Part shown: one piece after another, positions 16,866-25,758 of the stretch | Layout of the letters: each line of letters starts with the position of its first letter | Numbering within the stretch: the stretch's first letter is position 1 | Origin: Escherichia coli | GTDB taxonomy: Bacteria; Pseudomonadota; Gammaproteobacteria; Enterobacterales; Enterobacteriaceae | Assembly (NCBI RefSeq): GCF_009931435.1 | Contig: NZ_CP043414.1 | Length of the DNA: 64,000 nucleotides | Reading direction: 5' to 3' (one strand) | The notes under the pieces: generated by a model | The model's input: only the letters and a program-made list of their open reading frames with translations | What the model was told of the DNA's origin: nothing | Database searches by the model: none | Translations under genes and position numbers: made by a program

Positions 16866-18395
16866 ATGTTACTACCCTGGCTAATATTAATTCCCTTTAT
16901 CGGCGGCTTCCTGTGCTGGCAGACCGAACGCTTTGGCGTCAAGGTGCCGCGCTGGATCGCGCTGATCACCATGGGATTGACGCTGGCGCTGTCGCTGCAA
17001 CTGTGGTTGCAGGGCGGTTATTCACTGACGCAATCCGCCGGAATTCCGCAGTGGCAGTCTGAATTCGACATGCCGTGGATCCCGCGTTTTGGTATCTCTA
17101 TCCATCTCGCCATTGACGGGCTATCGCTGCTGATGGTCGTGCTGACCGGTCTGCTCGGTGTGCTGGCGGTACTCTGTTCGTGGAAAGAGATCGAAAAATA
17201 TCAGGGCTTCTTCCACCTCAACCTGATGTGGATCCTGGGCGGCGTTATCGGCGTGTTCCTTGCCATCGACATGTTCCTGTTCTTCTTCTTCTGGGAAATG
17301 ATGCTGGTGCCGATGTACTTCCTGATCGCACTGTGGGGGCATAAAGCCTCTGACGGTAAAACGCGTATCACGGCGGCAACCAAGTTCTTCATTTACACCC
17401 AGGCGAGTGGTCTGGTGATGCTGATCGCCATCCTGGCGCTGGTTTTTGTTCACTACAATGCGACTGGCGTCTGGACCTTCAACTATGAAGAGCTGCTGAA
17501 TACGCCAATGTCTAACGGCGTGGAATATTTGCTGATGCTGGGCTTCTTCATCGCATTTGCGGTGAAAATGCCGGTGGTTCCGCTGCATGGCTGGCTGCCG
17601 GATGCGCACTCCCAGGCTCCGACCGCCGGTTCCGTTGACCTCGCGGGGATCTTGCTGAAAACTGCCGCTTACGGTTTGCTGCGTTTCTCCCTGCCGCTGT
17701 TCCCGAACGCGTCGGCAGAGTTTGCACCAATCGCTATGTGGCTGGGTGTTATCGGCATCTTCTACGGTGCGTGGATGGCCTTCGCCCAGACCGATATCAA
17801 ACGTCTGATCGCCTACACCTCGGTTTCCCACATGGGCTTCGTGCTGATTGCTATCTACACCGGCAGCCAGTTAGCCTACCAGGGCGCGGTCATTCAGATG
17901 ATTGCTCACGGCTTGTCGGCGGCGGGTCTGTTTATTCTCTGCGGTCAGCTTTATGAGCGTATCCATACCCGCGATATGCGCATGATGGGCGGTCTGTGGA
18001 GCAAAATGAAATGGCTGCCAGCACTGTCACTGTTCTTTGCGGTGGCAACGCTTGGGATGCCGGGCACCGGTAACTTCGTCGGCGAATTTATGATTCTGTT
18101 CGGCAGCTTCCAGGTTGTCCCGGTGATTACCGTTATCTCTACCTTTGGGCTGGTCTTTGCATCTGTTTATTCGCTGGCGATGTTGCATCGCGCTTACTTC
18201 GGTAAAGCGAAAAGCCAGATTGCCAGCCAGGAACTGCCAGGGATGTCGCTGCGTGAGCTGTTTATGATCCTGTTGCTGGTGGTGCTGCTGGTACTGCTGG
18301 GCTTCTATCCGCAGCCGATTCTGGATACCTCGCACTCCGCGATTGGCAATATCCAGCAGTGGTTTGTTAATTCCGTTACTACTACAAGGCCGTAA
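16866..18395 (+). CDS. nuoM: NADH:quinone oxidoreductase subunit M (antiporter-like)
   Basis: 509 aa membrane protein. Confidence 0.93.
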   Translation: MLLPWLILIPFIGGFLCWQTERFGVKVPRWIALITMGLTLALSLQLWLQGGYSLTQSAGIPQWQSEFDMPWIPRFGISIHLAIDGLSLLMVVLTGLLGVLAVLCSWKEIEKYQGFFHLNLMWILGGVIGVFLAIDMFLFFFFWEMMLVPMYFLIALWGHKASDGKTRITAATKFFIYTQASGLVMLIAILALVFVHYNATGVWTFNYEELLNTPMSNGVEYLLMLGFFIAFAVKMPVVPLHGWLPDAHSQAPTAGSVDLAGILLKTAAYGLLRFSLPLFPNASAEFAPIAMWLGVIGIFYGAWMAFAQTDIKRLIAYTSVSHMGFVLIAIYTGSQLAYQGAVIQMIAHGLSAAGLFILCGQLYERIHTRDMRMMGGLWSKMKWLPALSLFFAVATLGMPGTGNFVGEFMILFGSFQVVPVITVISTFGLVFASVYSLAMLHRAYFGKAKSQIASQELPGMSLRELFMILLLVVLLVLLGFYPQPILDTSHSAIGNIQQWFVNSVTTTRP

Positions 18396-18401
18396 ATCGC
18401 C

Positions 18402-19859
18402 ATGACAATAACTCCACAAAACCTGATCGCACTGCTACCGTTGCTGATCGTCGGCTTGACGGTGGTGGTTGTGATGCTCTCCATTGCGTGGCGACGCAAT
18501 CATTTCCTCAACGCTACGATCTCGGTTATTGGGCTTAACGCGGCGCTGGTTTCGCTCTGGTTTGTCGGCCAGGCGGGCGCTATGGACGTTACGCCGCTGA
18601 TGCGCGTTGATGGTTTCGCCATGCTTTACACCGGGCTGGTATTGTTGGCGAGCCTCGCCACCTGTACTTTCGCCTACCCGTGGCTTGAAGGCTATAACGA
18701 CAACAAGGACGAGTTCTACCTGTTGGTGTTAATTGCCGCGCTGGGCGGGATCCTGCTGGCGAATGCCAACCATCTGGCGTCTCTGTTCCTCGGTATTGAA
18801 CTGATCTCTTTGCCGCTGTTTGGCCTGGTCGGTTACGCTTTCCGCCAGAAACGTTCGCTGGAAGCCAGTATCAAATACACTATCCTTTCTGCCGCAGCGT
18901 CTTCTTTCCTGCTGTTCGGTATGGCGCTGGTGTATGCGCAGTCTGGCGACCTGTCGTTTGTCGCGCTGGGTAAAAACCTCGGCGACGGTATGCTCAACGA
19001 GCCGCTGTTGCTGGCAGGTTTCGGCCTGATGATTGTTGGCCTTGGCTTCAAACTCTCTCTGGTGCCGTTCCACCTGTGGACGCCAGACGTATACCAGGGC
19101 GCGCCTGCGCCGGTTTCCACTTTCCTGGCGACGGCGAGCAAAATCGCTATCTTCGGCGTGGTGATGCGTCTGTTCCTTTACGCACCAGTGGGCGACAGCG
19201 AAGCGATTCGCGTGGTGCTGGCGATTATCGCCTTTGCCTCTATCATCTTCGGTAACCTGATGGCGCTGAGCCAGACCAATATCAAACGTCTGCTCGGTTA
19301 CTCATCTATCTCTCACCTCGGCTATCTGCTGGTGGCGCTGATTGCGCTGCAAACTGGCGAGATGTCGATGGAAGCGGTAGGGGTTTACCTGGCCGGTTAT
19401 CTGTTCAGCAGCCTCGGCGCGTTCGGCGTGGTCAGCCTGATGTCCAGCCCGTATCGTGGCCCGGATGCTGATTCCCTGTTCTCTTACCGCGGTCTGTTCT
19501 GGCATCGTCCGATCCTCGCGGCAGTGATGACGGTGATGATGCTGTCACTGGCGGGTATCCCAATGACGCTGGGCTTTATCGGTAAGTTCTATGTGCTGGC
19601 GGTCGGTGTCCAGGCACACTTGTGGTGGCTGGTGGGTGCGGTGGTTGTCGGTTCGGCAATCGGCCTCTACTACTACCTGCGCGTAGCGGTGAGCTTATAC
19701 CTGCACGCCCCGGAGCAACCGGGTCGCGACGCACCGTCAAACTGGCAGTACAGCGCGGGTGGTATCGTGGTGCTGATCTCTGCACTGTTGGTACTGGTGC
19801 TGGGTGTATGGCCGCAACCGCTGATTAGCATTGTGCGGTTAGCAATGCCGCTGATGTAA
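18402..19859 (+). CDS. nuoN: NADH:quinone oxidoreductase subunit N (antiporter-like)
   Basis: 485 aa membrane protein, last gene of the operon. Confidence 0.93.
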
Positions 19860-19882
19860 GCTGTCAGTTCGTAAGTCAGAAA

Positions 19883-19910
19883 GCCGCCGACAAGTTCGGC
19901 GGTTTTTTTT
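19883..19910 (+). terminator. Rho-independent terminator of the nuo operon
   Basis: Stem ccgccga / tcggcgg with a 5-nt loop followed by 8 T, 24 nt after the nuoN stop. Confidence 0.75.
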
Positions 19911-19926
19911 GGTGCCCTGACCCCCA

Positions 19927-20430
19927 TCACCCAACAATAACCGTCAGCGCATGATTCCCTTGCCGCAGCATACGTCGATACGCGCTAATCAGCTTTTCCA
20001 TATCGAGCATGATCGAAGCAAAGAGTTGCCCCTCTAACTCTTCTGAAAAGGTTACTCCCGGATAAATCTCCATTTCATTGAGTCGTTTAATGGAAAACTG
20101 TTTACGCAGCACATTTCGGTCAAGAGCTTCCAGTCGGTCGATTGTCGCGGCTAACTCCTGATTCCAGGTCAATCCCAGGAATCCATCTATGCCATCTTCG
20201 AGGCTGTGTTCACCAAGCACGGCACGACTCAGCGGATCATTCTTCGCGGGATCAAAAGCAGAGGTGCCTGTCAGCCCAAAGTGTAAAAAATCCCAGCGTT
20301 TATCAATATCCAGTCGGCGTAATCCTGAAAGCGTGTCATGTATATTATCCATCAAAGGTTTTTGAGTAGACTCAAGAAGTTGGTTAATCTTTTCTGAGTC
20401 AATTTCTGCAAAATAGCCAATCATTCCCAT
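19927..20430 (-). CDS. yfbM: DUF1877-family protein YfbM
   Basis: 167 aa ORF with ATG start; recognised as YfbM; convergent with nuoN. Confidence 0.85.
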   Translation of the reverse strand: MGMIGYFAEIDSEKINQLLESTQKPLMDNIHDTLSGLRRLDIDKRWDFLHFGLTGTSAFDPAKNDPLSRAVLGEHSLEDGIDGFLGLTWNQELAATIDRLEALDRNVLRKQFSIKRLNEMEIYPGVTFSEELEGQLFASIMLDMEKLISAYRRMLRQGNHALTVIVG

Positions 20431-20532
20431 TTTATTTTCCTCCGTTGAATTTCATGTTTCGCATCTTAAAACAGACGAGGGAAAATAAAATGTACATGTC
20501 GCTTTTTCTGGACCCGCCTCGAGAAATTTTTA

Positions 20533-21504
20533 TTATTTACTGTTGTATAACAAAGTTATAACCCCATCCACTACCTGAGCCATTTTCTGATAATTCAATC
20601 TGTCTGCGGTATCACCGGGCAAGTGGTATTGTTTATTACGATAAAAAGCGGTGTCGGTAATCATTACGGCGGGAATATCGTGTTGCCAATAATTAAGGTG
20701 ATCAGAGAAATCAATACCGGGAATAAACCCTGGGGCATTCATAGAATAAACAGATAAATCCTGAGATGACAACAATGCCGCTTTTAGCTGACGAACGGCG
20801 TTGATATCCTGCATTCTGCCGACCACGGCAATAAAGTCTCCCCGATCGGGATAAAGCCAGGACATTGCCGGGTAAGGGTAATCCTGACTACCAGGCGCAG
20901 AGTCGTAATAGCCAATCATCTCCAGCGCTATCATTAATCTAACTGGACGCTCAAGCGAAGCTGCATGTACCGCGCTCCCCATTTCATCGCTACGAAAGAA
21001 GGGCGGTTCTTCCGACGCATAGGCGACCAGCTGCACGCCAGTTTTCGGTGCTTGCTGCTGTAACAAACGTGCCAGTTCGAGTAATCCTGCCACGCCGCTG
21101 GCGTTATCATCCGCGCCCGGCGTATAGGTCAATTGATCGTTTTCATAACTGCTGACAGAATCATAGTGCGCACCAATAATAATCAGCGGTCCATCGGCAG
21201 GACCATAATCAGCAACAATGTTTTTGTAGGGACCTCCCGTAATGGGGACGTCCTGCGCGGTAACGCTGGCACCGCTACTGATAAAGACCTCTTTTATATA
21301 TTCTGCGGACCTTTTCAGATTATCAATATTGTCGGCACTACGGGGATGCACAGTTTGTGTAAGATAACGAACTGTTTTTTCTAATTGCTCAGGACTTGTG
21401 TGTCGGGGCGTTGGCGGTAATGCATTGACCCAGGGTTGGTAAAAAATAATCAGAGGGAGTGAAAACAGAATTAATATAATAAAAGCAAAGTTTATTTTTT
21501 TCAT
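20533..21504 (-). CDS. yfbL: M28-family aminopeptidase-like protein YfbL, signal peptide present
   Basis: 323 aa from the ATG at 21504 (the ORF-track start at 21510 is a TTG); N-terminal hydrophobic signal; metallopeptidase M28 hallmarks (HYDS ... DDNASG ... EE). Confidence 0.85.
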   Translation of the reverse strand: MKKINFAFIILILFSLPLIIFYQPWVNALPPTPRHTSPEQLEKTVRYLTQTVHPRSADNIDNLKRSAEYIKEVFISSGASVTAQDVPITGGPYKNIVADYGPADGPLIIIGAHYDSVSSYENDQLTYTPGADDNASGVAGLLELARLLQQQAPKTGVQLVAYASEEPPFFRSDEMGSAVHAASLERPVRLMIALEMIGYYDSAPGSQDYPYPAMSWLYPDRGDFIAVVGRMQDINAVRQLKAALLSSQDLSVYSMNAPGFIPGIDFSDHLNYWQHDIPAVMITDTAFYRNKQYHLPGDTADRLNYQKMAQVVDGVITLLYNSK

Positions 21505-21641
21505 ATGCAAATTATTAATGGGTTGCGTTATTGAATCATTATTTGTTATAGGTTTCGATATTGTATTTTATTAAGATTAGCAGGATTATACAAAGAGTAT
21601 ATTTTATGTCTGGTGCCTGAGTTTATTTAAAAGGATTTTAT

Positions 21642-23369
21642 ATGCGAAATAAAAATATAATCATGTTGCTTATGAGTAGTTTGATTTTGTCAGGATGTGG
21701 GCCGGAACCTGAGAATAAGGAAAGTCAGCAACAACAACCCAGTACTCCAACAGAGCAGCAAGTGCTTGCCGCGCAGCAAGCTGCAATAAAAGAGGCTGAG
21801 CAAAGCGCCGCCGCCGCGAAAGTCTTGGCCCAGCAAGAAGTGCAACAATATTCAGACAAACAGGCTTTACAGGGGCGATTGCAGGAAGCGCCAACATTTG
21901 CAAGAGCGGCTAAAGCAAAAGCTACACATGTCGCAAATCCAGGAACCGCTCGCTATCAGCAGTTCGATGATAATCCGGTTAAGCAGGTAGCGCAAAATCC
22001 GTTGGCGACGTTTAGTCTTGACGTTGACACTGGCAGTTATGCGAATGTACGGCGTTTCCTCAATCAAGGGCTGTTACCTCCGCCAGACGCTGTGCGGGTG
22101 GAGGAGATAGTCAATTATTTCCCGTCTGATTGGGATATCAAAGACAAACAATCTATTCCGGCCTCTAAGCCAATACCTTTCGCTATGCGCTACGAATTGG
22201 CACCTGCGCCATGGAATGAACAGCGAACATTGCTGAAAGTTGATATCCTGGCGAAAGATCGCAAAAGTGAAGAGTTACCAGCTTCTAATCTGGTCTTTCT
22301 TATCGACACTTCTGGTTCAATGATTTCTGATGAACGTTTGCCACTTATCCAGTCTTCGTTGAAATTATTGGTCAAAGAACTTCGTGAGCAGGATAACATT
22401 GCTATCGTGACCTACGCTGGCGACTCCCGTATTGCATTGCCTTCTATCTCCGGGAGTCATAAGGCGGAAATTAATGCCGCAATTGATTCGCTGGATGCCG
22501 AAGGCAGTACCAATGGCGGTGCCGGGCTGGAACTGGCTTATCAGCAGGCGGCGAAGGGGTTTATTAAGGGCGGTATCAATCGCATTTTATTGGCCACTGA
22601 CGGTGACTTTAACGTTGGTATTGACGATCCAAAATCGATTGAATCAATGGTCAAAAAACAGCGGGAGTCCGGTGTTACTCTGTCGACGTTTGGCGTGGGG
22701 GATGACAATTACAACGAGGCAATGATGGTGCGAATTGCCGATGTTGGCAACGGTAACTACAGCTACATTGATACCCTCTCTGAAGCGCAGAAAGTATTGA
22801 ACAGTGAAATGCGGCAGACGTTGATTACCGTAGCAAAAGATGTCAAAGCGCAAATTGAGTTTAACCCCGCGTGGGTAACGGAATACCGTCAGATTGGTTA
22901 TGAAAAGCGCCAACTTCGGGCGGAAGATTTTAATAACGACAACGTTGATGCGGGGGATATTGGCGCAGGCAAACATATAACGTTGTTATTTGAATTAACG
23001 CTGAACGGGCAAAAAGCATCAATTGATAAGTTACGCTATGCCCCGGATAACAAATCAGCGAAATCGGACAAAACGAAAGAACTGGCCTGGTTAAAAATTC
23101 GCTGGAAATACCCGCAGGGAAAAGAAAGTCAGTTAGTTGAATTCCCGCTGGGGCCAATAATAAACGCGCCCTCTGAAGATATGCGTTTTCGCGCAGCAGT
23201 AGCTGCATATGGGCAAAAGTTACGCGGTTCTGAATACCTGGACGAAATCTCATGGCAGCAGATAAAACAGTGGGCTCAGCAGGCAAAAGGGGAAGATCCA
23301 CAGGGTTACAGGGCGGAATTTATTCGCCTGGTTGAACTGGCGGATGGGGTGACTGGCATCAGTCCGTGA
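21642..23369 (+). CDS. yfbK: von Willebrand factor type A (vWA) domain lipoprotein YfbK
   Basis: 575 aa; lipobox LILSGC at the N-terminus; vWA MIDAS motif DTSGSM; AAGGA RBS upstream. Confidence 0.85.
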   Translation: MRNKNIIMLLMSSLILSGCGPEPENKESQQQQPSTPTEQQVLAAQQAAIKEAEQSAAAAKVLAQQEVQQYSDKQALQGRLQEAPTFARAAKAKATHVANPGTARYQQFDDNPVKQVAQNPLATFSLDVDTGSYANVRRFLNQGLLPPPDAVRVEEIVNYFPSDWDIKDKQSIPASKPIPFAMRYELAPAPWNEQRTLLKVDILAKDRKSEELPASNLVFLIDTSGSMISDERLPLIQSSLKLLVKELREQDNIAIVTYAGDSRIALPSISGSHKAEINAAIDSLDAEGSTNGGAGLELAYQQAAKGFIKGGINRILLATDGDFNVGIDDPKSIESMVKKQRESGVTLSTFGVGDDNYNEAMMVRIADVGNGNYSYIDTLSEAQKVLNSEMRQTLITVAKDVKAQIEFNPAWVTEYRQIGYEKRQLRAEDFNNDNVDAGDIGAGKHITLLFELTLNGQKASIDKLRYAPDNKSAKSDKTKELAWLKIRWKYPQGKESQLVEFPLGPIINAPSEDMRFRAAVAAYGQKLRGSEYLDEISWQQIKQWAQQAKGEDPQGYRAEFIRLVELADGVTGISP

Positions 23370-23395
23370 TGACTTTTTAGCAAACTATGTTCGAT

Positions 23396-23417
23396 CAGTC
23401 AGCATATTTGCTGACTG
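23396..23417. terminator. Hairpin between convergent yfbK and elaD (possible bidirectional terminator)
   Basis: Inverted repeat cagtcagca / tgctgactg with a 4-nt loop. Confidence 0.45.
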
Positions 23418-23439
23418 GTCGAATTGACTAACAATGATG

Positions 23440-24654
23440 TTAACTTACTCTTTTGCCTGATGCTCTATTTTGGGGTTGTGAGTGTTTTATTTCTAAGTCT
23501 CTATAATAATCATTGATATTTGCATCGCCATATTTATCTAAATAACAATTTCTGTTTACCTGTCGATGTTGAAAATCAATTTCGTACTGCTCTTCTGCTG
23601 AATATTTTTTAAATCTGTCAGCATAGTTTTTTAATAACGTATAGGGAGCGCTGTCAGAATTGCTTTCCCTTTGTTCAATTACTTCTTTGGCTGCCATGCA
23701 CACAAATGCACCGCAACTTTGGCTTAAGTATTGCTGAAGATCGGCATGTAAAAATGTTATCTCTTGTTCAGTTAAATGATCTGTTATATTCTTATTATTC
23801 GGCATTTCCCCCATGAATTTAGAATTGAAACTATTAATGACACGCTTAAGTGAATTTTCTTTATCATGGCCTAGTGCACGTAATGAGTTGAATATGACGC
23901 ATTTTATTTGTTGTGTGTTATTTTTTTCATTAACTATTTTTTGTAGCGAAACTAATATCCAGTGTCCGCCAGTATTTATGGGGAATAACTGGACTTCTTT
24001 CGGCCATGATGGATCGCTCTTAATATTATCATTGAGAGCGATTTCCAGGTAAGTGCTGTTGGAATCGGGGAGGTAGAGACCAGTAGGATAATTGACTTGA
24101 GTATTTTTTGCATTAGCGGCGATCTTCTGAAGATAGCAATCTATTTCATCCGTGGTTAATTGACGATTTTTATCCCAGAAGTTTGTACCATCGCTCAGTT
24201 CATTATTCTTATCATTTAAAAGTACCTTTGAAAGCGACTGTTTTTCTGATATGAGAGGAATGTCCTCACCGATAATTGTCATTAATTTCGAAGGGGAGAA
24301 TAGTTTTTTGAACAGGAGATTATCTGAATTATGTGATTTGAGGGGGTGTTTGGTTGCGGTATGTGCCAAATTATATAATTTTAAACAGGCATTTTTTATA
24401 AGCTTGATAATCGATAGGGTATCATTTGTTGGGTTTCTAACAATATGGTAAAGAATATCTTCAGCTTTTTTTCCAAATTCATCATAACCTAACGCAATAT
24501 TATGCAGTAACTCAATGCTTTCTTCATCTCCGGATAACGCTGTTTTTTTTAAAGACTGCAGTAATTCCTCGGTCACAGTAAATTTTTCTGCAAATGTCTG
24601 ACAGAGTTGGGTTTGAGATAATTGACAATAATTGCTGACAACTGTAACCATCAT
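23440..24654 (-). CDS. elaD: ElaD, CE-clan cysteine protease with deubiquitinase activity
   Basis: 404 aa ORF in a markedly AT-rich stretch; recognised as E. coli ElaD (..[16 protein letters not shown].. catalytic His region). Confidence 0.85.
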
Positions 24655-24840
24655 AGGCTCCTTTTAGTTGCAAAGATTGTGCTGAATGAAGATAAAAAGA
24701 GGCAACTTATTGCTCTGAATATAGTGCGTGCGGAGATGAATAAATATCAAAAATCGCTCAATATGCCCGTGTGGGTGGATATATGTGGCGCGGGTTGCGA
24801 TAACAGGGCAAGTTTCGCCCTGTTTTAGTAGGAAGCAGAG

Positions 24841-25758
24841 TTAAACGTTAAACACGGTGAAATCATGCGCCAGTTCAGTCGCCGGGAAAATTGACCTGCA
24901 TTCACGTAACAGGTGCTGACAACCTTTGTCATCATAGCGCGAGCTGACGTGGGTAATGATTAGCTTACCGACTCCAGCCTCACGGGCCAGTGTCGCAGCC
25001 TGGCGTGTAGAGCTATGACCGCGACTATTGGCTTTGGCTTCCATGGTTATATCCAGCGTCGCTTCGTGCACCATGACATCGACACCTTTAGCCAGGTCAA
25101 GTGCGGCATCGCAGGGGCCGGTATCGCCGAAAATAGCGAGCGCTTTACCTGGCACTGGAGCAGCTAAGTAATCTGCGCCGTTAATCTGCCTTCCATCTTC
25201 CAGCGTGATTGTTTTGCCCGCTTTTAATTCCTGAAACAGTGGGCCAGGCGGCACGCCAGCAGCTTTTAATGCCTGGGCATTTAATGCACCCGGTTTATCA
25301 TGTTCTTCAATACGATAGCCATAACATTCCAGTGGGTGTACCAGCGGATAAGCGGTTACTTTGCGCAGGCCATCATCGAAAATTTCGCCAGCGCCAATTT
25401 CGACAATTTCCAGCGGATAATCGGTCCATGAGCCGCTAATCCGCAGCGCAGTCTCCACAAATTCACGGAGACCTTGCGGACCATAAATCGTTAAGGGTTG
25501 GACAATACCAGACATAGAACGACTGCACAGCAAGCCGGGTAAACCAAAGAGATGATCGCCATGAAGATGGCTGATAAAAATCTTGTCCAGTTTTCCAGGG
25601 TTAAAGGCGGTATGCAGTAGCTGATGCTGGGTGCCTTCACCGCAGTCAAACAACCAAAGCCCGCTCTGGGTCGGATGTTGCAGGTTAAGCAATATTGCCG
25701 TGACATTGCGCGTACGGGTTGGCACACCGGCTGAAGTACCTAAAAAAATTAATTCCAT
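24841..25758 (-). CDS. rbn: RNase BN / RNase Z (metallo-beta-lactamase fold)
   Basis: 305 aa from [13 protein letters not shown]; HxHxDH motif (HLHGDHLFG); the ORF-track start lies 6 codons upstream. Confidence 0.88.

Follow-up and report, generated by a model that had tools for sequence, protein, structure and literature searches.

Do three adjacent genes of Escherichia coli, for none of which a function was found in the literature, form one working unit, or do they simply share an address? This question is raised by yfbM, yfbL and yfbK, which lie at positions 19,927 to 23,369 of the window, the 64,000-nucleotide stretch of contig NZ_CP043414.1 (RefSeq assembly GCF_009931435.1) that was analysed as a whole. 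An earlier note on this DNA had rightly described the three as lacking an established role and had read them as a co-regulated envelope cluster made up of a DUF1877 protein (YfbM), a secreted M28 metallopeptidase (YfbL) and a vWA lipoprotein (YfbK). The family assignments were borne out by the present analysis; the co-regulated cluster was unsupported, the genes being distributed independently of one another. The explanation that we favour, and consider probable, is that these are three intact but functionally separate accessory genes within a variable segment between the conserved nuo operon and rbn/elaA/elaB, with YfbK an orphan sensor, YfbL a lone peptidase and YfbM unrelated to either. Already catalogued as E. 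coli genes, they would owe their proximity to history and not to a joint function, and the practical outcome is that neither study nor annotation should treat the trio as a single system.

Distribution of the three genes and selection acting on them

Each gene was searched separately against 5426 complete E. coli genomes. Using this approach, yfbM was found to be present (at least 80% covered) in 5355 of them (99%) and yfbL was matched in 5352, at full length in just 3292 (61%), with yfbK matched in only 2539 (46-47%). yfbK is not a core gene: one old deletion removes it from more than half of the complete E. coli genomes. In a representative strain without yfbK (L085), a 1558-bp deletion (window 21774-23331) has taken away nearly all of the gene, a separate 326-bp deletion lies inside yfbL (window 20918-21243), and the stretch between both deletions is 81% identical to the intact allele. 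A probe spanning both deletion scars recovered ~2610 E. coli genomes at 90% identity or more, O157:H7 included. The 326-bp yfbL deletion occurs in most, not all, of the genomes with the yfbK deletion, and some of these keep an intact annotated yfbL. Further losses in the yfbK/yfbL region are caused by IS1 insertions, and yfbM is intact throughout while yfbK and yfbL decay.

The pairwise ratios of nonsynonymous to synonymous substitution rates (dN/dS), taken between the window and K-12 or E. albertii, follow the same division. Values for yfbM were 0.02-0.07 and for nuoN 0.01; for yfbL the ratio was 0.35 and for yfbK 0.30 (0.12 against E. albertii), which places yfbM 5-10x below the other two. 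Thus yfbM is strongly constrained, and yfbL and yfbK are relaxed. As the only member of the trio under strong purifying selection, YfbM is the better target for functional work.

Outside E. coli, the gene order in Salmonella is rbn, cheV, yfbK, a DUF1877 pseudogene and nuoN, without yfbL and without elaD; yfbK is intact there and its product is 71% identical to E. coli YfbK. Superficieibacter and an enteric metagenome scaffold (L095) carry the divergent yfbK/yfbL pair and no yfbM, with other genes next to nuoN (in Superficieibacter, YfbK is 66% and YfbL ~61% identical). For the wider family, a family-alignment scan with one genome per species yielded at least 80 YfbK-family loci from many phyla. 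Among the matches listed, no M28 or DUF1877 gene lay within 10 kb or less of any of the 78 non-enteric loci (0/78); a YfbL relative was present only at the two enteric loci and a YfbM relative only in E. albertii. The converse holds for YfbL, as none of the five non-enteric YfbL-orthologue loci that were read had a vWA gene, a DUF1877 gene or any shared neighbour. Genomic co-occurrence of the trio, which had been suggested as a check on the cluster, therefore gave a largely independent distribution, in E. coli as in Salmonella, Superficieibacter, L095 and the non-enterics, and the same is found outside enterics for yfbK and yfbL considered as a pair. Judged by co-occurrence and adjacency, the three genes are independently present, absent and placed, and do not make up a conserved cluster or operon.

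In favour of one co-regulated envelope module it can be said that the three genes are adjacent in the window and in roughly half of E. coli genomes, and that the 102 bp between yfbL and yfbM hold no terminator-like site found by a consensus scan. However, YfbM is cytoplasmic, because it has no signal peptide or hydrophobic segment, its gene persists at 99% despite the decay of yfbK and yfbL and under far stronger constraint, and it is absent beside the pair in Superficieibacter and L095. DUF1877 genes elsewhere also lie in contexts unrelated to yfbK and yfbL, namely in Fulvitalea and, between smpB and glcD, in Neisseria lactamica (PMC5118866), the coverage here being two loci and that paper, with a Fulvitalea DUF1877 query giving just three matches. 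The view of a three-gene module is largely refuted by distribution, and we give it next to no credence.

A narrower alternative is that yfbK and yfbL, without yfbM, are an enteric-specific pair with a shared control region, in which YfbL, as part of an envelope process, processes YfbK, is recruited by it or acts on the ligand of YfbK. It is here that the points weighing against three separate genes are gathered. At least three enteric lineages (Escherichia, Superficieibacter and L095) retain the divergent yfbK/yfbL arrangement, and both proteins are predicted to face the periplasm. The haplotype with the yfbK deletion mostly also has an independent yfbL deletion or frameshift; since this yfbL deletion occurs in a haplotype already without yfbK, it could mean that YfbL depends on YfbK. 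The yfbL of the E. albertii type strain has an in-frame stop. Enteric diversity was under-sampled among the matches listed in the family-alignment scan. Phenotypes have been reported as well: knockouts of yfbL and yfbO resist phage N4 and were complemented (preprint), so YfbL is not simply junk, and yfbK knockouts turn up in several screens, including those for conjugation efficiency and rifampin-induced persistence. Against the pair stand the intact yfbK of Salmonella, which has no yfbL, and at least ~750 E. coli genomes (e.g., L090) in which full-length yfbL with all catalytic motifs occurs without yfbK, a count which, like the yfbK/yfbL overlap, was computed from totals and not from a genome-by-genome table. 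In addition, the two families were never adjacent outside enterics (0/78 among the matches listed, and 0/5 loci), and promoter-like sites over 19800-23600 were not above expectation (9 versus 6.9 +/- 2.8 in shuffled sequence), although the promoter/terminator scan weighs neither for nor against a shared control region. Joint decay would be equally expected of two dispensable neighbours. On balance we regard the enteric-specific pair as doubtful.

The N4 phenotype allows another interpretation of the same haplotype, in which YfbL, maybe with YfbK and the product of the nearby yfbO of K-12, would be an envelope host factor required for infection by phage N4. The yfbK-deleted, yfbL-broken haplotype, carried by roughly half of E. 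coli, would in that case be a resistance polymorphism driven by phage, as opposed to neutral decay. Drawing on the preprint phenotype of yfbL and yfbO together with the deletion haplotype, this proposal appears very unlikely to us; N4 resistance is the sole specific phenotype that was found for YfbL.

YfbK as a member of a family linked to ECF sigma factors

The favoured explanation, of three separate genes, depends in the case of yfbK on what its relatives do. YfbK matched, in order, the Pfam families vWF_A (PF12450, 113 bits), VWA (PF00092, 79.5 bits) and YfbK_C (PF12034, 228 bits), for which the gathering cut-offs are 25, 23.8 and 25 bits, respectively. As the earlier note had proposed, it is a predicted vWA lipoprotein with an intact metal ion-dependent adhesion site (MIDAS): D222-T-S224-G-S226, T290 and D320 are present, and all five residues are invariant across 97 family members. 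The lipobox L-S-G-C ends at Cys19 (MRNKNIIMLLMSSLILSG-C19), giving a lipoprotein signal, and no 19-residue stretch exceeds a Kyte-Doolittle value of 1.6, so that a transmembrane (TM) helix is absent. The residue at +2 is Gly, without the Asp signal for inner-membrane retention; by this rule YfbK is probably anchored in the outer membrane, where it would face the periplasm. By analogy with ITIH heavy chains and integrin I-domains, its conserved 470-residue module (vWF_A, VWA with MIDAS, and YfbK_C) most likely uses the MIDAS metal to bind an acidic residue on a protein ligand.

Two functional hints were set aside. The label 'Ca-activated chloride channel homolog' (KEGG K07114) was rejected, as the NCBIfam hCaCC match to YfbK is confined to the vWA domain and reaches 20 bits where 901 are required, and a genomic SELEX peak for LldR within yfbK was not taken as regulation, being a single in-vitro binding peak in a coding region.

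A homologue search with YfbK listed 120 matches, all of them E. coli variants, and a cluster-representative search was used instead. This identified the YfbK module in 7208 clusters at E <= 1e-30, whose representatives typically share ~50% identity across residues 95-572 and differ widely at the N-terminus. In the family-alignment scan, a gene for an extracytoplasmic function (ECF) sigma factor lay 300 bp or less from the YfbK-family gene in 45 of the 80 loci, among the matches listed; Pfam searches on selected N-termini and neighbours confirmed Sigma70_r2, r4 and ECF, as well as zf-HC2 in one fused form. The sigma gene was directly downstream in all nine evaluable non-enteric full-length homologues of the lipoprotein type (9/9, likewise among the matches listed).

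Several layouts of this linkage were observed. In Gammaproteobacteria, a YfbK of the lipoprotein type is followed by the sigma gene and then, in 4/4 loci examined, by a single-pass anti-sigma-like gene. In Alphaproteobacteria, Planctomycetota, Verrucomicrobiota and Omnitrophota, the sigma gene overlaps the beginning of a gene for a fusion protein, in which a cytoplasmic N-domain (zf-HC2 once) is joined through a TM helix and a long linker to the vWA module. In Bacteroidota, a CarboxypepD_reg-vWA protein is accompanied by a divergent sigma gene. Elsewhere, then, the module would usually be partnered, on the extracytoplasmic side, with an ECF sigma factor, either as an anti-sigma/TM fusion encoded just downstream of the sigma gene or as a separate lipoprotein encoded just upstream of the sigma gene and a single-pass anti-sigma-like gene.

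The operons of Pseudomonas, Colwellia and Shewanella (L010 11446-12740; L019 11896-13474; L050 11920-13243) have a YfbK-like lipoprotein, an ECF sigma factor and a single-pass protein in that order. The third protein matched no Pfam family, its periplasmic part is disordered, and it presumably represents an anti-sigma factor of a new type. In the literature, no experimental work on this system of lipoprotein, sigma and anti-sigma was found.

No anti-sigma-like gene lies beside yfbK, and no sigma-like open reading frame is found next to it or in the rest of the 64-kb window. Because it is without a sigma or anti-sigma partner, enteric yfbK can be read as a dispensable orphan, that is, a sensor module without dedicated transcriptional output which is being lost in E. 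coli. The relaxed constraint on yfbK, and the frequency with which it is deleted, fit an orphan whose sigma output has been lost.

YfbL, YfbM and the layout of the interval

YfbL was confirmed as an M28 metallopeptidase (Pfam Peptidase_M28, 93.5 bits versus a cut-off of 21.3). Its residues were assigned by HMMER alignment to chains of the 1AMP family, using the metal-ligand identities of the Vibrio aminopeptidase. This gave the full ligand set (H113, D133, E166, E195 and H269) and the catalytic E165, and all of these residues are invariant in 26/26 orthologues. It was also considered whether YfbL could be a glutaminyl cyclase (M28-like, mono-zinc), which was rejected as the full two-metal set is retained and matches to such cyclases are partial (E 6e-9 to 4e-6, ~80-110 residues). 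From these motifs, YfbL is most likely an active aminopeptidase facing the periplasm. The description of it as secreted and bearing a signal peptide stood in part: the N-terminus is hydrophobic, but an invariant Q-P and a conserved motif follow the hydrophobic segment in 26/26 orthologues, and with these features an uncleaved membrane anchor is at least as likely as a cleaved signal peptide, so that secretion is only one possibility. Full-length orthologues of 50-58% identity are found in Lysobacter, Hydrogenophaga, Burkholderiales and others. YfbL would thus be a membrane-anchored or secreted di-zinc M28 aminopeptidase that acts in the periplasm and belongs to a widespread, stand-alone family.

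YfbM belongs to the DUF1877/YfbM family, as had been stated, with 118 bits to Pfam DUF1877 (cut-off 22) and a full-length match to PDB 1RYL, a solved structure. It would be a strongly conserved cytoplasmic protein with a function unrelated to YfbK and YfbL. The gap from nuoN to yfbM is 67 bp in the window (19860-19926) and lacks yfbN-yfbO-yfbP, which occupy it in K-12 (L001 9439-12048). The slot between yfbL and nuoN as a whole is variable, containing yfbM only (window), yfbM with yfbN-O-P (K-12), an SMI1/KNR4 fragment (ET350), IS200 (L090) or an AAA_21 ATPase with a gene of no assigned identity (L095). The latter two genes may constitute a defence system. In Salmonella enterica, the DUF1877 pseudogene at the yfbM site (L003 6001-6357) has two in-frame stops and is 35% identical to YfbM, which may reflect a separate DUF1877 lineage at this position or else rapid decay.

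Such variation could mean that yfbM is itself cargo of a variable island by nuoN, such as a small protein of immunity-like or anti-phage-related type, and the very different Salmonella allele, a pseudogene at the same site, would fit with this as do the differing contents of the slot. We nevertheless consider it unlikely, as yfbM is near-universal in Escherichia under strong purifying selection, unlike typical island cargo, and no toxin gene adjoins it. A PADLOC search gave no match for YfbM, nor for YfbL, YfbK, YfbN, YfbO or YfbP.

The features of the interval are collected in Table 1. The same three genes are annotated in RefSeq complete E. coli genomes, with DNA identity up to 97.6%.

Table 1. 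Genes, protein domains, spacers and likely terminators of the yfbM-yfbL-yfbK interval (window positions).
Feature	Position	Strand	Description
nuoN	18402-19859		Flank on the yfbM side
Likely terminator	19884-19910		GC-rich hairpin CCGCCG-ACAAGTT-CGGCGG and T run, from direct sequence reading
yfbM	19927-20430	-	167 aa, DUF1877, cytoplasmic; isoelectric point 4.98, without hydrophobic segment
yfbL-yfbM spacer	20431-20532	-	102 bp; contains the yfbM Shine-Dalgarno sequence GGAGG
yfbL	20533-21504	-	323 aa from ATG (RefSeq start), M28 metallopeptidase
YfbL catalytic domain	~20554-21222		Peptidase_M28
YfbL hydrophobic segment	21439-21495		aa 4-22; 19 residues, Kyte-Doolittle 2.5
yfbL/yfbK divergent spacer	21505-21641		137 bp between start codons; AT-rich, GC ~0.36
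yfbK	21642-23369	+	575 aa, predicted lipoprotein
YfbK signal and lipobox	21642-21698		aa 1-19
YfbK linker	21699-21944		aa 20-101; Ala/Gln-rich
YfbK vWF_A N-domain	21945-22238		aa 102-199
YfbK VWA	22287-22790		aa 216-383; MIDAS DxSxS at 22305-22319
YfbK_C	22818-23345		aa 393-568
Likely bidirectional terminator	23390-23423		15-bp inverted repeat, 4-nt loop; lies between the stop codons of yfbK and elaD (convergent)
elaD	23440-24654	-	Flank on the yfbK side, convergent with yfbK; rbn beyond

The divergent orientation of yfbL and yfbK across 137 bp, pointed out in the earlier note, was confirmed, and this spacer contains one sigma-70-like match for yfbL (21612 to 21585, 10/12). A TTG at 21510, two codons upstream of the ATG, is a possible alternative start for yfbL. 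The hairpin at 19884-19910 sits between the nuoN and yfbM stops and was omitted by the consensus scan. Next to yfbM, an inverted repeat of 18 nt (20428-20445 / 20475-20492) could sequester the Shine-Dalgarno sequence and AUG by pairing; with a fold of -27.2 kcal/mol, a z of only -1.6 and the upstream arm lost in E. albertii, this ribosome-site hairpin is probably not a regulatory element and was rejected as such. No Rfam match was obtained at E <= 0.1 for window 19000-25000. A non-canonical sigma-32 signal from chromatin immunoprecipitation has been reported at yfbM/yfbN (PMC3738151).

On the nuo side, nuoM-nuoN (16866-19859) has 95-99% identity to every E. coli genome (best 98.4%), and the yfbM-yfbK segment (19800-23500), with just 90-95% identity to most E. 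coli genomes, is more polymorphic than this flank. These values point to a somewhat divergent Escherichia as the source of the DNA. On the other side, elaD encodes a deubiquitinase of the ElaD/SseL family (NCBIfam, 429 bits), is intact in the window and has a very low GC content (0.33-0.36). Several E. coli strains lack elaD or have it as a pseudogene, and a cheV-like gene is found at its place in Salmonella and Superficieibacter.

Comparison with known systems

Counterparts of the trio are known from K-12, in which yfbK (b2270), yfbL (b2271) and yfbM (b2272; PDB 1RYL) are orthologues in the same order and orientation as in the window. The proteins of the window are 97% (YfbK), 94% (YfbL) and 98% (YfbM) identical to these, and all are annotated as uncharacterised. 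For YfbM, a comparison with the Neisseria DNA mimic DMP12 (PDB 3W1O) gave 8% identity and a partial overlap, which is a lead only.

YfbL shares its M28 fold, and the metal and catalytic residues H, D, E-E, H, with the leucyl aminopeptidase of Vibrio/Aeromonas proteolytica (1AMP) and with Legionella LapA (NCBIfam NF045908). Similarity to these enzymes is weak (E 1e-10 to 1e-14) and far under the 600 bits of the equivalog cut-off. As its fourth ligand YfbL has Glu195, invariant in the subfamily, versus Asp179 in the Vibrio enzyme, and YfbL, unlike 1AMP and LapA, possesses an N-terminal membrane segment and is without a propeptide domain.

The fold of YfbK is nearest to those of ITIH1 (PDB 6FPY) and the alpha2delta subunit of calcium channels, with which sequence identity is just 14-19%; these are eukaryotic proteins with other N- and C-terminal domains and without the lipid anchor predicted for YfbK. 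A bacterial comparison is offered by the vWA 'force transducer' proteins (Mol Biol Evol 2025, PMC12204202), whose C-terminal vWA fold was likened to E. coli YfbK by their authors. A TM helix with a long Pro/Ala-rich linker is common to the force transducers and to the fused YfbK homologues found here, whereas E. coli YfbK would be lipid-anchored and is without a TM helix or motor-box region, and no ExbBD/TolQR-type genes lie beside yfbK in the window.

A further comparison is with the ECF sigma systems. An anti-sigma factor combining DUF3520 and vWF has been described for group ECF289 (Casas-Pastor et al., 2021, PMC7826278). Anti-sigma factors of this type, as well as the Pseudomonas, Shewanella and Colwellia operons, share with YfbK the vWF_A-VWA-YfbK_C module at 41-54% identity with the MIDAS invariant. 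The YfbK of the window differs from the ECF289 type in that its N-terminus is a lipoprotein signal, without an anti-sigma/TM region, and yfbK does not belong to that type, having neither the adjacent sigma gene nor the anti-sigma component, be it as a domain with TM helix or as a separate gene. The gene downstream of yfbK is the convergent, low-GC elaD. As the module is usually tied to an ECF sigma factor elsewhere, the search for its ligand would best be undertaken in organisms with the sigma linkage, such as Pseudomonas, Shewanella and Mesorhizobium.

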